Shown: positions 20,886 through 54,951, numbered from the stretch's first letter. The stretch is DNA of 64,000 nucleotides from Escherichia phage BF17 (MW822008.1); one strand, 5' to 3'. The notes: generated by a model not told the origin, from the sequence alone. A program made the numbers and translations.

Positions 20886-20914
20886 TTTGACTTAAGTGTT
20901 TAAGTACTATATTA
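20886..20914 (+). promoter_or_regulatory. sigma70-type promoter
   Basis: TTGACT - 17 nt - TATTAT, 37 nt upstream of ATG 20951. Confidence 0.5.
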
Positions 20915-20950
20915 TTTATATCTTCCTAAACAAAATTGAGGACTTGTTAT

Positions 20951-35839: not shown

Positions 35840-35847
35840 TATAAATA
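35840..35847 (+). promoter_or_regulatory. T4-type late promoter core TATAAATA
   Basis: Exact TATAAATA about 35 nt upstream of the first fiber-like gene. Confidence 0.5.
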
Positions 35848-49643: not shown

Positions 49644-49948
49644 AAAAATTATTAGTTCCAATGATTTCTTTTTTAATTATAAGTGGGTGTGCCGAGCAAG
49701 TAAAACTACAATCCCCCGCACCAATTAAACAAGAAATTCTGTTAGAAAGATGTGATGATGATACACCTCTACCACAAAAAATTATGATTGACAAAAATGG
49801 TTTTAAAGGTTATGATGGTGCAGAAATTCTTAAAGTACTTACTCGTTGGGATGCAGTCTACAATGAATGTGCTTTAAAACACGACGCATTGATTAAAACT
49901 ATTCGTGATTTACAAGGTAAAGATATTAAAATCAATATCAAGGAATAA
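49640..49948 (+). CDS. putative o-spanin (Rz1-like lipoprotein)
   Basis: Signal peptide with lipobox IISGC; overlaps upstream gene. Confidence 0.55.
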   Translation: MKKLLVPMISFLIISGCAEQVKLQSPAPIKQEILLERCDDDTPLPQKIMIDKNGFKGYDGAEILKVLTRWDAVYNECALKHDALIKTIRDLQGKDIKINIKE

Positions 49949-49949
49949 A

Positions 49950-50561
49950 ATGAACAAATATCATGTTTACTATACGACAAAATTATCACTTCTTGAAGAA
50001 TTAAATCAACGAAGTACTAAGATGAAACGCTACACTTTAAATGGTATTACTTTTCGATATTTCCCACAAAAAGTTCTTACTTTTGTTAAGAATCCAAAAT
50101 GCGTGGCATGTGGGATTGAAGCTACTGAAGTACGCATTGAACGTTCATTATGTTCTGATCCAGTATATGGTAAACCACATTTAAATGTATATGCTGTATG
50201 TGGTCTTTATGAAGTTTTAATGACAGTTGACCATAATCATCTGGCATCTAAGGGTGGACCTGATTTAGAGTCAAACTTTAATACTATGTGCTCCAGATGT
50301 AATCAACTACGTTCGAATAAAACTGAAACAGTTGATGAGTTTCTTGAGAAAGTTAAAGGTCGTAATCTTCTCCAAGAACATATGAATAATTTCTTTAATG
50401 TACAAAAAAAGAAAAATAACATTGACAAGTCGAAACTACTAGAAGAACGTAGGTTACGTCAAGAATTATGGGAAACCGATCATCTATGGCATGTTCGAGA
50501 GTTTGGTCGTCATATGAAAGCTTTGAAAAAAGAACAGAAGAAATTGAATAAACATGATTGA
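49950..50561 (+). CDS. HNH endonuclease
   Basis: ORF 49905..50561 trimmed to ATG after upstream stop; DHNH ... N ... CSRCN motif with flanking cysteines. Confidence 0.6.
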   Translation: MNKYHVYYTTKLSLLEELNQRSTKMKRYTLNGITFRYFPQKVLTFVKNPKCVACGIEATEVRIERSLCSDPVYGKPHLNVYAVCGLYEVLMTVDHNHLASKGGPDLESNFNTMCSRCNQLRSNKTETVDEFLEKVKGRNLLQEHMNNFFNVQKKKNNIDKSKLLEERRLRQELWETDHLWHVREFGRHMKALKKEQKKLNKHD

Positions 50562-51370: not shown

Positions 51371-51399
51371 TGGGACATTATATGTTCCAATGATATAAT
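51371..51399 (+). promoter_or_regulatory. early promoter with TGGGACA upstream element
   Basis: GGGACA - 16 nt - TGaTATAAT; near-identical to promoter at 26149. Confidence 0.55.
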
Positions 51400-51676
51400 G
51401 TATATAGAAAATGACAACGGACATTGAAAAATGGACACTGAGAACCTACTTCTCTTGAAAATGTAAAGGATAGATGAGCTTTACCGTTGTAGCGAACAGC
51501 AGAAGAAACCTGTTAGAGTACTGGCATTCAAACAAACACGATGTAAGACCACGAATCACGGCGACACGGCTGTATAAAGAACTCCGATAAGCATACAGAG
51601 AGTTCCTAGATAGATGTATAAGGTTCGCACCTTACCAGATTTGCTAAGGGAGTTCAAGAATAGCGGACGCAATTTT

Positions 51677-51706
51677 TACAAGAAAGTTGCGTCCAAAATT
51701 TGAGAA
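51677..51706 (+). repeat. dispersed direct repeat copy 1
   Basis: TACAAGAAAGTTGCGTCCAAAATTTGAGAA, 27/30 identical to copy at 51829. Confidence 0.7.
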
Positions 51707-51828
51707 CAAGTACTACTTTGATCGAATAGAGTTAGTACTGAGTGCTGTTGATGAAAAGACCAGCGACCGTTGCATATGACTGCGATAGAGAGAAACCGAG
51801 CAACCCGCTTTCGCTCTCTAAATTTTGG

Positions 51829-51858
51829 TACAAGAAAGATCCGTCCAAAATTTGAGAA
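51829..51858 (+). repeat. dispersed direct repeat copy 2
   Basis: TACAAGAAAGATCCGTCCAAAATTTGAGAA. Confidence 0.7.
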
Positions 51859-51896
51859 ATTCGCAATTCGATAATATCCGATGCCATCATCGTCAA

Positions 51897-51921
51897 GAGA
51901 GACTTAATTGTCTCTTTTTTA
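51897..51921 (+). terminator. rho-independent terminator
   Basis: GAGAGAC-TTAATT-GTCTCT then TTTTTT. Confidence 0.55.
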
Positions 51922-52060
51922 TTACCTTCATTCCCCTGCGGGGGGATGTAATAGTCCTCAACAAATCCCGTCAAGTTTTTAAAGTACATTATCATTTTCA
52001 GAAGGAACTAGTTTACGAAGTAAACGCAGTGACTTCTTGAGTTACGAGAGAACGAAGTGA

Positions 52061-52489: not shown

Positions 52490-52521
52490 ATAATAAGAGA
52501 ATAACTCTAAGGAGAGATATT

Positions 52522-52962
52522 ATGGAAGATATTAATGATTTACGACACGTAATGGACTTTATCGGAAGTACTGAAGAAGATAATTCATATGATGAAGTAC
52601 TATTAACTTTTATTGAAAATAGTTTGTTTTTAAGTTCTGCTGCACATAACTGGCACTTACAATGTCATTTTTATACAAAGCATTTACAATTAGATGAACT
52701 ATATAAAGAATTACCAGAATATGTAGACGCATTTGTTGAAGGTATCATGAATAATCGTGGTGCTTTGCAAGTTGGGACTGGTAATAGTTATCGTTTTACA
52801 CCAATTGAAGATTGTGTACCAATTCTTGAAGAATATGTTGAGCAATGCAGAGCAATTCATGATATGCTTGAAGAATCGGGTGATTACGGCAGTGTAAACA
52901 CATTAGAAGATATTATGAGTTTTGTTGAAGGAACACTTTACAAACTTAAAGTTTTACAATAA
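52522..52962 (+). CDS. Dps/ferritin-like four-helix-bundle protein
   Basis: AAHNWHLQCHFYTKHLQLDELYKELPEYVDAFVEG shows H-x11-H-x14-D-x3-E spacing as in Dps ferroxidase-site residues. Confidence 0.45.
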   Translation: MEDINDLRHVMDFIGSTEEDNSYDEVLLTFIENSLFLSSAAHNWHLQCHFYTKHLQLDELYKELPEYVDAFVEGIMNNRGALQVGTGNSYRFTPIEDCVPILEEYVEQCRAIHDMLEESGDYGSVNTLEDIMSFVEGTLYKLKVLQ

Positions 52963-52972
52963 ACTATATGGT

Positions 52973-52999
52973 GAGTCGCTATGACTCTCCTTTTCTTTT
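52973..52999 (+). terminator. possible terminator
   Basis: GAGTC-GCTAT-GACTC then TCCTTTTCTTTT; short stem. Confidence 0.35.
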
Positions 53000-53010
53000 G
53001 GAGAAATAAT

Positions 53011-53628
53011 ATGAAATCGCATGAGTTAGCAAAATTACTACTATCTCAACCAAATCTAGAAATTTATCATTATGATGCAGAGAGTGACTTGCATTATCAG
53101 AATTTTGATAATAGATTAATGGTTACACCATCTGGTATTTTCACAACGGTAAAACCTACATCAGTTTCTGAAAATGTACTTACACCATACGAAACCCCCC
53201 TCTTGGGTCATGTGCAAATTTTCTTTAAGGATGGTACTATTACTCCAAAATTGGAGGGTTCACATATTCAAACTGTTCTTAGCTTAGAATATGGGTTGGT
53301 ATTTAACATTCCTTATGAAAAGCCAATTGTTTTATTAGGTAAAAATAAATCAACACAATTCTCTAATCAACATGCTGTTTGTTATACATCTGATGATATT
53401 GATTTCATTTCAGTACTGACAGAATATGATCCTAATACTTGGCATGAAACATGGGAAAATATGTCATATGATGAAGCAATTGAATGTGGTAAAAATTTAG
53501 CCAAAATGTTATTTCCACCGAAAAAAGAACTTTCACAAGAACAAAATGAATCATTTTCTAAAGATTTTCCTGATTCTGAATTCAATGTTAAAGTATCACC
53601 TTCTATGATTGATAAAATTGAAAAATAA
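53011..53628 (+). CDS. hypothetical protein (paralog of 54364 gene)
   Basis: ORF 52981..53628 trimmed to ATG after GGAG; shares LAxLLL..P..E.YH ... TPSG.F motifs with 54364 gene. Confidence 0.5.
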   Translation: MKSHELAKLLLSQPNLEIYHYDAESDLHYQNFDNRLMVTPSGIFTTVKPTSVSENVLTPYETPLLGHVQIFFKDGTITPKLEGSHIQTVLSLEYGLVFNIPYEKPIVLLGKNKSTQFSNQHAVCYTSDDIDFISVLTEYDPNTWHETWENMSYDEAIECGKNLAKMLFPPKKELSQEQNESFSKDFPDSEFNVKVSPSMIDKIEK

Positions 53629-53994: not shown

Positions 53995-54367
53995 ATTCCA
54001 CCAGCATTGTTCTATACATGAATGTGATGATTGTGGTATACAAATGAGTGACATTTATACAGTTTCCTGTAAAGGTTTCAAATTCACTCACGGTGAACCT
54101 GCTTATTGTTATGGTACAGAAGAAGGTGATATCGAAGTAGTACTGAAAGAATTGTTCCAGTACTTGCAAAGTGTAGGTCATGATGTTACAATACCCACAT
54201 ATTATGAAGATGATTATGATGCACATGTAGAAGAAAATACATATTATAATCAATTCGTTTATGGTAATGGTTTTATCACATACCTACATGAGAATGGTAT
54301 TGAGGTAAAAACTAAGTACACCAGTGATGATTATGATGATGATAATTCTATGGAGATTGTAGATTGA
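53975..54367 (+). CDS. hypothetical protein
   Basis: 130-aa acidic ORF. Confidence 0.45.
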   Translation: MQIKKIKFHQHCSIHECDDCGIQMSDIYTVSCKGFKFTHGEPAYCYGTEEGDIEVVLKELFQYLQSVGHDVTIPTYYEDDYDAHVEENTYYNQFVYGNGFITYLHENGIEVKTKYTSDDYDDDNSMEIVD

Positions 54368-54951
54368 AAGCAAAAGACTTAGCAGCACTGTTGTTGCAGA
54401 ATCCTGAAATGGAAGTGTATCATGAGCACATGCACATTGATGACATGTGTGACGCTTACTATTCACCAGAAAATGTGTCTGGTATTGAAATTACCCCTAG
54501 TGGAGTATTCATCAGTACTGAACATATTGATTTCGATTCCCAGCAAGAAATCAAAACTCCACATAATAAGCCTCGCATTGGTGCTATTGACCTAGTATTT
54601 CATCAGGACCGTTTGGTGGAATATGATGAAGACGATGGTACTACCCGAACTGATGTTGAGAACATTGTTTTTCCTTTTTATAATGCATACGGAGACTCAA
54701 CAACAGGTGAAGATTTCTTCAGTGAACTATTAAATGATGGGGAAGTTTATGGTCAGAATGGAACAGTTTTTGTACTAGATCCTAATTATGAGCCAGACCA
54801 TAATACATGGCAATTCTACACACCTGAAGATGTAATGGAAGTTAAAGTACTTACAGATCTTGACGATAATTGGAACCCAGTATATACTTCAATGACATTT
54901 GAAGAAGCAAAAAACCATTTCGTTTCTAAACTAAACATTACAAAAGAATAA
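54364..54951 (+). CDS. hypothetical protein (paralog of 53011 gene)
   Basis: 195-aa ORF. Confidence 0.5.
   Translation: MKAKDLAALLLQNPEMEVYHEHMHIDDMCDAYYSPENVSGIEITPSGVFISTEHIDFDSQQEIKTPHNKPRIGAIDLVFHQDRLVEYDEDDGTTRTDVENIVFPFYNAYGDSTTGEDFFSELLNDGEVYGQNGTVFVLDPNYEPDHNTWQFYTPEDVMEVKVLTDLDDNWNPVYTSMTFEEAKNHFVSKLNITKE

Follow-up and report, generated by a model that had tools for sequence, protein, structure and literature searches.

An open reading frame of Escherichia phage BF17 (MW822008.1), located on the + strand at 52522..52962 of the analysed stretch of 64,000 nucleotides (the window), encodes a protein of the DUF5856 / T4 RI.-1 family which very probably folds as a ferritin-type, Dps-like bundle with a conserved intersubunit metal site. 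Judged from its sequence, it is a widely conserved phage accessory gene with a genuine, non-random Dps signature. We somewhat favour the idea that the product is a phage mini-ferritin, a highly diverged Dps whose iron oxidation and sequestration would protect the infection. An earlier note on this DNA had proposed a phage-encoded Dps/ferritin-like protein and was right in outline, as indicated by the profile homology, the fold and the conservation of the ligand set.

The window protein is not new. A Dps-type label has been present in GenBank since the 121Q record, DUF5856 and PHROG 858 are catalogued, and phage Dps-like genes have already been reported (PMC2853527, PMC6669764, PMC8008677); for this window, the finding only re-derives an existing annotation. 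The combination of an identity between DUF5856 and T4 RI.-1, a remote homology to Dps with invariant ligands and a recurrence in virion preparations was not found in the literature searched.

Gene, family and inherited labels

The ORF comprises 146 codons with an ATG start, the stop codon being included in the coordinates, and the translation given in the earlier note matches it exactly. The coding sequence (52522..52962, +) was assigned to the DUF5856 / T4 RI.-1-family Dps-like proteins by ORF, Pfam and PHROG analysis. A strong Shine-Dalgarno sequence, AAGGAGAG, was read at 52509..52516 (+) with the ATG 5 nt downstream, and for this reason the 146-aa start is favoured over the Met11 start of the 121Q record. 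The long form is annotated in the phAPEC6 record, and the mass of 16.90 kDa in the corresponding MS table is that of the 146-aa protein. On the 3' side, a hairpin scan highlighted a terminator-like element at 52973..52997 (+), in which the hairpin GAGTCGCTATGACTC (52973-52987) is followed by the T-run TCCTTTTCTT. This element falls in the short gap before the next gene, whose probable start is 53011. Two such sites were found in the scanned region for 1.1 expected, so that the hairpin is weak evidence by itself; a terminator is annotated in the same stretch in the G17 record, and in the T4-like phage MP1 a terminator lies directly 3' of the DUF5856 homologue. The T4-type late promoter TATAAATA occurs only twice in the window, in neither case close to the Dps-like gene, and the 15 sigma-70-like promoter matches, for 13.2 expected, are not above chance. 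None of the ten neighbouring ORFs falls in a PHROG of known function, and no rI-like gene was found flanking the window gene when these neighbours were compared with PHROGs. An association with defence or anti-defence was considered and rejected, PADLOC giving no match for the window protein. The surrounding 6 kb shares 95-96% DNA identity with the Asteriusvirus jumbo coliphages G17, Sharanji, PBECO4, 121Q and phAPEC6.

The window protein matches Pfam DUF5856 (PF19174) with 99.8 bits for a cut-off of 34.6 (E 1.9e-28), the match covering model positions 1-94 of 94 and residues 45-142, and all 42 aligned relatives also match DUF5856. PHROG 858 is matched at E 1.9e-35 over profile positions 9-128 of 129, and PHROG 3636, 'DNA binding protein', more weakly at E 1.5e-6. 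The protein is 100% identical in 121Q (gp518), phAPEC6 (gp306c), G17, SHEFM2K and a Salmonella phage. An exhaustive HMM search of metagenomes yielded 770 clusters at 50% identity (E<=1e-3), and a search with a T4-like member detected the family in 1,449 of 50,697 phage genome records, T4 itself included. The gene is carried by T4 and other Straboviridae, by Ackermannviridae, by RaK2-like jumbo phages and by Aeromonas, marine and other uncultured phages. DUF5856 is an old, phage-specific lineage, the kinship of which with Dps is visible only by profile or structure comparison. The string 'DUF5856' was not found in papers by the literature search, and the phAPEC6, CBB, Sharanji and PA5oct papers make no mention of Dps, ferritin, iron or starvation.

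In the 121Q record, gp518 is named 'starvation-inducible DNA-binding protein' and annotated from Met11, and newer records call the protein 'starvation-inducible transcriptional regulator' or 'hypothetical protein'. Taken at face value, these GenBank product names and PHROG 858, together with the weaker PHROG 3636 match and the fact that some Dps proteins bind DNA, would make it a DNA-binding protein or a transcriptional regulator. We consider this very improbable, since the labels derive from the historical Dps name and not from experiments on the phage proteins. The window protein has a pI of 4.3, with 28 acidic residues for 8 basic ones, and its residues 1-30 contain 9 Asp/Glu for a single Lys/Arg, giving an acidic N-terminal tail where the DNA-binding tail of E. 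coli Dps is Lys-rich (a feature that is not universal among Dps proteins). The median pI of the family is 5.1, none of the 85 members exceeds a pI of 8, and the Pfam search of the window protein revealed no helix-turn-helix or other DNA-binding domain. Because both the protein and its family are acidic, 'DNA-binding protein' and 'transcriptional regulator' should be regarded as inherited names for unsupported properties. For the same reasons of charge (pI 4.3, acidic tail, family median pI of 5.1), the protection of replicating DNA evoked in the earlier note is unlikely to proceed through DNA binding.

Homology to Dps, fold and putative metal ligands

As a single sequence, the window protein gives weak matches in the PDB (E 2e-4 to 0.02), almost only with Dps chains. 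Pfam Ferritin (PF00210) is reached at E 0.0019 with 18.6 bits, below the cut-off of 24.5, and the NCBIfam Dps equivalog NF006975 at E 0.014 with 15.4 bits, far below the cut-off of 114; only 3 of the 42 relatives attain PF00210 at E<=0.01. A profile of the 42-sequence family matched S. aureus Dps in the PDB at E 4e-8, and a profile of 85 sequences, built from distant single-domain members, gave 24 PDB matches at E<=0.01, all of them of the Dps family, the best at 1.2e-8. These profiles are decisive and point to a remote but significant homology, specifically to Dps. The comparison with Dps/ferritin profiles, suggested beforehand as a check of the proposal, is thus in its favour, as the family profiles match only Dps proteins in the PDB (best E about 1e-8). 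Among known systems, bacterial Dps is one of the closest, e.g. the Dps proteins of L. innocua (1qgh) and S. aureus (2d5k), B. subtilis MrgA (2chp) and B. anthracis Dlp-2 (1jig). In an alignment, the segment GDYGSVNTLEDIMS pairs with GDYGTANIMDDIMS of Borrelia NapA.

AlphaFold2, run with the family alignment, produced a confident model of the window protein (pLDDT 85.2, pTM 0.79) with helices at residues 21-47, 51-79, 95-118 and 122-144 and a long crossover loop at 80-94, which is the ferritin/Dps topology. The A-B hairpin, the long B-C crossover and the C-D hairpin are disposed as in the four-helix bundle of Dps. When the model was compared with the PDB by Foldseek, nearly all of the top 50 matches were Dps subunits (TM 0.6-0.7, probability 1.00). 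The four-helix bundle predicted from the length of the protein is therefore borne out by the model and by the Foldseek matches; the structure obtained is of the ferritin type, the point on which the proposal could have failed.

In the AlphaFold2 model, helix A (52582..52662, +) carries H42 (52645-52647) and H45 (52654-52656), and helix B (52672..52758, +) carries H54 (52681-52683), D58 (52693-52695), Y61, D69 (52726-52728) and E73 (52738-52740). The B-C crossover loop (52759..52803, +), for which no helix is predicted, is followed by helices C and D (52804..52953, +), assigned from the model and from conservation. The conserved acidic residues E129/D130 are found at the start of helix D, and Y140/K141 are conserved in the family (145 and 141 of 149 representatives, respectively). 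The bundle is preceded by an acidic N-terminal extension, residues 1-20 (52522..52581, +), modelled with a short helix of low confidence at 7-14. This extension is specific to the jumbo-phage subfamily, where R8 and D12 are invariant, and is absent from T4 RI.-1 and from other short members.

The earlier note had started from the pattern H-x11-H-x14-D-x3-E, presented as exactly the spacing of the Dps ferroxidase site. Searched as H.{11}H.{14}D.{3}E, it is found once in the window protein, at H42/H54/D69/E73; across all six frames of the window, none of the other stop-to-stop segments of 60 aa or more (250 in total) contains it. By residue shuffling, 0.055 occurrences are expected in the whole window and 0.0015 in the window protein, so that the match is real and not due to chance. 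The spacing equals that of H31/H43/D58/E62 in L. innocua Dps, a numbering re-derived from the 1qgh alignment, the chain numbering of which agrees with published Dps ligand numbers. It also equals that of the E. coli Dps ligands H51/H63/D78/E82. The window protein contains in addition a second pattern, H45-x8-H54-x14-D69-x3-E73, and the alignments indicate that this version is the relevant one, not that beginning with H42.

Conservation was analysed in 149 alignable representatives from the best 150 hits, with a mutual identity of at most 50%. H45, H54 and E73 are present in 149/149 and both D69 and Y61 in 148/149, whereas position 42 is His in 95 and Trp in 48, and position 58 is variable (D 61, G 31, N 29, Q 16, E 10). 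The same picture was obtained with two further family alignments. Within the jumbo-phage subfamily (52-90% identity), H42, W44, H45, H54, D58, D69 and E73 are all invariant. The register to L. innocua Dps is the same in every profile alignment: H42, H45, H54, D58, Y61, D69 and E73 align, respectively, with His28, His31, His43, Asp47, Tyr50, Asp58 and Glu62, and the A-B loop of the window protein has 3 residues fewer. By alignment, the tetrad H45/H54/D69/E73 (148-149/149) is thus the Dps ferroxidase ligand set. H42 was rejected as the first ligand, conservation and the Dps alignments both pointing to H45; by alignment, it corresponds to the His of the Dps 'HxxHW' motif that is not a ligand, at -3. 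The apparent x11 identity arises because the deletion of 3 residues in the A-B loop offsets the 3-residue shift between H42 and H45. The argument from spacing consequently stands in part: the pattern is present and unique, and shuffling speaks against chance, but the homologue of the first ligand is H45 (x8) and the x11 identity, resting on the non-ligand H42, is partly coincidental.

In the model, helix A ends 2 residues beyond H45 and helix B starts 3 residues ahead of H54, so the two His should face one another across the A-B hairpin. Helix B runs without a break from H54 to D69, a separation of 15 residues or ~22 A; because of this distance, H45, H54, D69 and E73 cannot form a site within one subunit. 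We infer that, as in Dps, a second subunit related by two-fold symmetry must complete the site. In 24-mer ferritins and bacterioferritins, each bundle has its own internal di-iron site, with Glu and Glu-x-x-His on helices A-D. The window protein lacks conserved metal ligands on helices C/D as well as the fifth (E) helix. An intrabundle site of the ferritin/bacterioferritin type was rejected, no conserved Glu/His being found on helices C and D of the 149 representatives: position 103 is Glu in only 50/149 and position 113 is His in only 21/149.

The resemblance to Dps extends over the four-helix bundle with its long B-C crossover, a size of about 145-160 aa, and the His, His, Asp and Glu set on helices A and B, which implies a probable intersubunit site. 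It includes the equivalents of Asp47 and Tyr50 and the acidic residues at the start of helix D, where position 129 is D/E in 138/149 representatives and where Dps has pore-lining acids. Every significant PDB sequence match, like the top Foldseek matches, is a Dps protein. On the other hand, the identity is only 14-23%, with scores that fall short of the Pfam and NCBIfam cut-offs, and relative to Dps the A-B loop lacks 3 residues and the B-C loop, in all alignments, 6-7. The short B-C helix which lies at the two-fold interface of Dps has no counterpart in residues 80-94 of the model. Because this helix is missing and the A-B loop is shorter by 3 residues, the oligomer could differ from a dodecamer. 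Finally, the Trp that in Dps comes right behind the first His ligand is replaced by Leu in the window protein. Among the 149 representatives, 131 have Leu at position 46 and only 5 have Trp; in the window protein, W44 precedes H45 instead.

Proposed function and relation to T4 RI.-1

If the window protein is a mini-ferritin, antiparallel B helices at the two-fold dimer interface would complete the site as in Dps. Each dimer would then contain two di-iron ferroxidase sites, and the oligomer would probably resemble a cage. Fe2+ would be oxidised there with H2O2 or O2 and the iron sequestered, which would lower Fenton chemistry in infected cells, where the cell's own stress response has been shut off. 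In this way the phage DNA would be protected along with the machinery of biosynthesis, and infected cells would stay productive for longer, with no DNA binding through a basic tail. The abundance, stability and size of the protein, or its genuine packaging, would lead to its presence in purified virion preparations. The near-absolute conservation of the tetrad argues for this proposal, and the delayed collapse of lysis inhibition (LIN) reported for T4 RI.-1 fits a cell-preserving role (PMC2962797, passages on rI.-1). Against it are scores under the curated Ferritin and Dps thresholds, with 3/42 members at PF00210 E<=0.01, and the Leu which replaces the Trp beside the first ligand in 131/149 members. 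The conserved His/Asp/Glu residues could bind another metal or be structural.

The connection with T4 was established from its genome record. In that record, the antiholin gene rI is immediately followed by an ORF labelled 'DUF5856 family protein'; the 128 aa, 14.65 kDa and pI of 5.57 of its product match the published values for RI.-1. All key residues are kept when T4 RI.-1 is aligned with the window protein, and the RB49 and RB16 records name the homologue rI.-1. On these sequence grounds, the window protein is the jumbo-phage orthologue of T4 RI.-1. The T4 protein (128-129 aa, rI operon) shares with it the DUF5856 domain, the same conserved residues and an acidic character (pI 5.6). The two have 23% identity, T4 RI.-1 lacking the acidic extension of ~20 residues and having a shorter C-D loop. 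The T4 gene shares a transcript with rI; around the window gene, by contrast, there are no genes for lysis inhibition, and they are missing from its phage lineage.

RI.-1 of T4 is the only family member for which any experimental data are available (PMC2962797). Golec et al. 2010 describe an rI.1-rI-rI.-1 operon with an early and a late promoter, and report that RI.-1 expressed from a plasmid slightly prolongs lysis inhibition and delays its collapse in wild-type T4, synergises with RIII and relieves RIII toxicity, and is without effect in a T4 rIII mutant (PMC2962797). Only stable proteins can act in the assay used, and over-expressed RI.-1 is a stable, trans-acting protein. The phenotype is small and was obtained by over-expression only, and the authors' own reading is an interaction with RIII (PMC2962797). 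In the relevant passage of a 2019 review, the role of RI.-1 is 'as yet undefined' (PMC6832632). The lysis section of the RaK2 paper already recognises the orthologue gp015 as RI.-1-like, and its authors doubted a function in lysis inhibition on account of the absence of the T holin, RI, RI.1 and RIII (PMC3622015). No mention of Dps or ferritin was seen in the passages on rI.-1 of these three papers (PMC2962797, PMC6832632, PMC3622015).

These genetic data could also be explained by a dedicated modulator of lysis inhibition, a role that has been proposed for T4 RI.-1, acting through protein-protein contacts with RIII and indirectly on RI and the T holin to set the timing of lysis, in which case the conserved His/Asp/Glu residues would be structural or binding residues without a part in iron chemistry. 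The longer LIN, the RIII synergy, the abolition of RIII toxicity and the rIII dependence seen by over-expression in T4 (PMC2962797, passages on rI.-1) speak for it, and so does the co-transcription with rI in T4-like phages, where the family gene overlaps or abuts rI. We nevertheless regard it as improbable. The RaK2-like relatives have no T holin, RI, RI.1 or RIII according to the lysis section of the RaK2 paper (PMC3622015), and since the family persists in them, its core role should not be specific to lysis inhibition. The window gene has no rI-like neighbour, its neighbours belonging to PHROGs of unknown function, and the family is also present in Ackermannviridae, Aeromonas, marine and other uncultured phages. 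A partner restricted to T-even phages does not explain a Dps ligand set kept in 149 distant members. A cell-preserving antioxidant role, as proposed for the mini-ferritin, would account for the delayed collapse of LIN without a dedicated partner.

Other phage Dps-like genes have been described in silico in Campylobacter phages CP220/CPt10 (CPT_0123, PMC2853527), in Lactobacillus plantarum myophages (PMC6669764) and in 'Gratiaviridae' and other gut phages (PMC8008677). Like the window gene, these are phage-borne members of the Dps/ferritin superfamily, proposed to act against oxidative or iron stress (PMC2853527, PMC6669764, PMC8008677). They differ from it as recent acquisitions that are still recognisably host-like (e.g. 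30% identity to a Helicobacter Dps).

The DUF5856 family is common, yet Pfam gives it an unknown function, PHROG calls it 'transcriptional regulator' and the T4 literature, in the passage of the review cited above, an undefined role (PMC6832632). A candidate ferroxidase of the Dps type with conserved ligands offers a simple testable hypothesis for T4 rI.-1. If it is true, iron and peroxide management would be among the functions that large virulent phages supply for themselves after host shut-off.

Virion preparations and location

Unlike bacterial Dps, the family is encoded by virulent phages and its proteins are found in virion preparations. The identical phAPEC6 gp306c (16.90 kDa) is listed in Table 1, 'Structural proteome', of CsCl-purified particles with 6 unique peptides and 65.8% coverage, a coverage among the highest in that table (PMC7247149). 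CBB_169 of phage CBB (56% identity, DUF5856 E 2.7e-25) was detected by MS after a CsCl step gradient (3 peptides, 26.3% coverage), a result to which it owes its annotation as 'structural protein' (PMC5259590). In the T4-like Jiaodavirus phages ValerieMcCarty03/04, VMC263_108 (27% identity, DUF5856 E 5e-34) gave 26/27 PSM in CsCl virions, within the range of neck and baseplate proteins; the same table also contains non-virion proteins, namely an RNA ligase (18/17 PSM) and a helicase (PMC13119998). The main text of the RaK2 paper mentions the orthologue gp015 only in its lysis section, apparently not among the MS structural proteins (PMC3622015). The Eneladusvirus orthologues (pEa_SNUABM12_00164 and equivalents) are unnamed among the 89 proteins identified by MS in freeze-thaw ghosts, in which a 17.0-kDa 'putative structural protein' fits the expected 17.1-17.2 kDa.

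From the published virion proteomes it is clear that the protein is made in abundance and is stable. Its detection is compatible with packaging or with a large and stable, possibly dense oligomer that co-purifies, and leaves room for contamination. If packaged, the protein would be a virion component, inside the capsid or carried on the particle, that guards the packed 350-kb genome against metal-catalysed oxidation and/or is ejected with the DNA and acts at the start of infection. This would be compatible with a Dps-like chemistry and would alter the place and time of action. We hold it to be possible, though rather doubtful. Besides the phAPEC6, CBB and ValerieMcCarty detections, it would be in agreement with the label 'putative structural protein' given to the homologue in a Kuttervirus record, and with the late promoter also present in the T4 rI operon according to the passages on rI.-1 (PMC2962797). 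The conserved extra N-terminal peptide of the jumbo subfamily could be a targeting signal, and family members are encoded near a T4-type portal gene and near the gene of a giant protein.

Several observations argue the other way. RaK2 gp015 does not appear among the MS structural proteins in the main text of that paper (PMC3622015), the Eneladusvirus orthologue is unnamed but may be the 17.0-kDa entry that fits its expected mass, and the ValerieMcCarty data set includes the RNA ligase and helicase (PMC13119998). An oligomer of large size and great stability could plausibly co-purify as a contaminant, and would be denser if loaded with iron. Although the T4 virion has been studied intensively, no report of RI.-1 in it is known to us. 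In T4-like genomes, the family gene adjoins tk and lies among non-structural genes (tk, rI), and no T4-type late promoter TATAAATA is found close to the window gene. The DUF5856 fusion proteins are likewise without a capsid-protease or scaffold domain.

A wider proposal would make the DUF5856/RI.-1 proteins iron-oxidising, Dps-like assemblies of large myoviruses, produced late and carried in or with the virion, whose antioxidant action sets the duration of phage production; the delay of LIN collapse by T4 rI.-1 would thereby receive a biochemical explanation. We think it unlikely. If the association with the virion is genuine, it would bear on virion stability, e.g. in phage therapy stocks, and on the iron carried by particles. 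A carried, iron-oxidising protein would place a member of the ferritin superfamily in an HK97-fold capsid, by analogy with encapsulin cargo. Encapsulated ferritins form decamers of two-helix subunits and carry their targeting peptides at the C-terminus, and the comparison with ferritin-like encapsulin cargo is a functional analogy only, with no sequence relationship claimed.

Gene neighbourhood was considered as a clue to location and rejected as inconsistent across genomes: one divergent member lies 4 genes upstream of the T4-type portal gene (L007) and another two genes upstream of the gene for a giant multidomain protein of 5,647 aa (L008). A clue to a capsid site from gene fusion, namely the Dps-like folds present in BFVD in proteins named 'Prohead protease', was also rejected. 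In Pfam and PHROGs, no protease, scaffold or capsid domain was found in the long DUF5856 proteins P0179, P0237, P0242 and P0265, nor in P0231, P0138, P0173 and P0147. One long DUF5856 protein has a cytidyltransferase-like N-terminus.

Translation start of the Dps-like gene and its flanking regions

In the 121Q record, the Dps-like gene begins at Met11 (window position 52552) and encodes a protein of 136 aa. Both phAPEC6 and the window support a start at Met1 (position 52522, 146 aa), because a strong Shine-Dalgarno sequence precedes this codon, because R8 and D12 near the N-terminus do not vary among the orthologues and because the mass of 16.90 kDa listed in the MS table is that of the 146-aa form.

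Just downstream, two plus-strand ORFs of 205 aa (53011-53628) and 195 aa (54364-54951) both matched PHROG 18200, with E values of 7.5e-74 and 2.7e-84 respectively. These ORFs are a local paralogue pair with no assigned function. Upstream of the two-gene block, no convincing plus-strand ORF was found in about 690 bp (51371-52060), and this stretch may have a regulatory role or be non-coding. It contains a terminator-like hairpin on the minus strand (51816-51798) and a minus-strand ORF of 87 aa (51732-51995) which had no PHROG match and is annotated as gp307 in phAPEC6 and, in a shorter form, as gp516 in 121Q. A plus-strand HNH endonuclease ORF of 218 aa with a GTG start (49905-50561), annotated as such in 121Q (gp513) and in several relatives, is placed between the tail-fibre genes and the block carrying the Dps-like gene.

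Dps-like and DUF5856 regions in longer proteins

Among the BFVD structures, A0A6J7WIS1, A0A6J7XDU5 and A0A6J7WPK9 (432, 333 and 763 aa, respectively) are proteins of uncultured phages named 'Prohead protease', and each of them contains a Dps-like fold region (TM 0.62-0.69, 13-17% identity to the AlphaFold2 model of the window protein). Further entries titled 'DNA-binding protein Dps' are 290-498 aa long. These entries may represent ferritin-like domains fused to head-maturation proteins.

A large subgroup of the metagenomic DUF5856 proteins (P0067-P0105 and P0138-P0173), with total lengths of about 210-390 aa, carries a long C-terminal extension, for which no match was found in Pfam or PHROG. 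In a few metagenomic proteins of 336-832 aa the DUF5856 domain is itself C-terminal, and P0265 combines a cytidyltransferase-like N-terminal region with DUF5856 at its C-terminus. On the metagenome contig L008 (8001-8510 and 9989-16510), a divergent DUF5856 gene lies two genes upstream of the gene for a giant multidomain protein of 5,647 aa with Zeta-toxin, SNF2-related and helicase domains. Very large proteins of this kind are delivered together with the DNA by some phages.

The T4-type late-promoter octamer

The T4 late-promoter octamer TATAAATA is strongly avoided in the window: two copies were observed over the whole 64 kb, at 20913-20920 (minus strand) and 35840-35847 (plus strand), versus 12.8 ± 3.5 expected from dinucleotide-preserving shuffles (n = 100), all 100 of which contained at least 2 copies. 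Such avoidance would be expected if TATAAATA is a functional signal in this T4-related jumbo phage.
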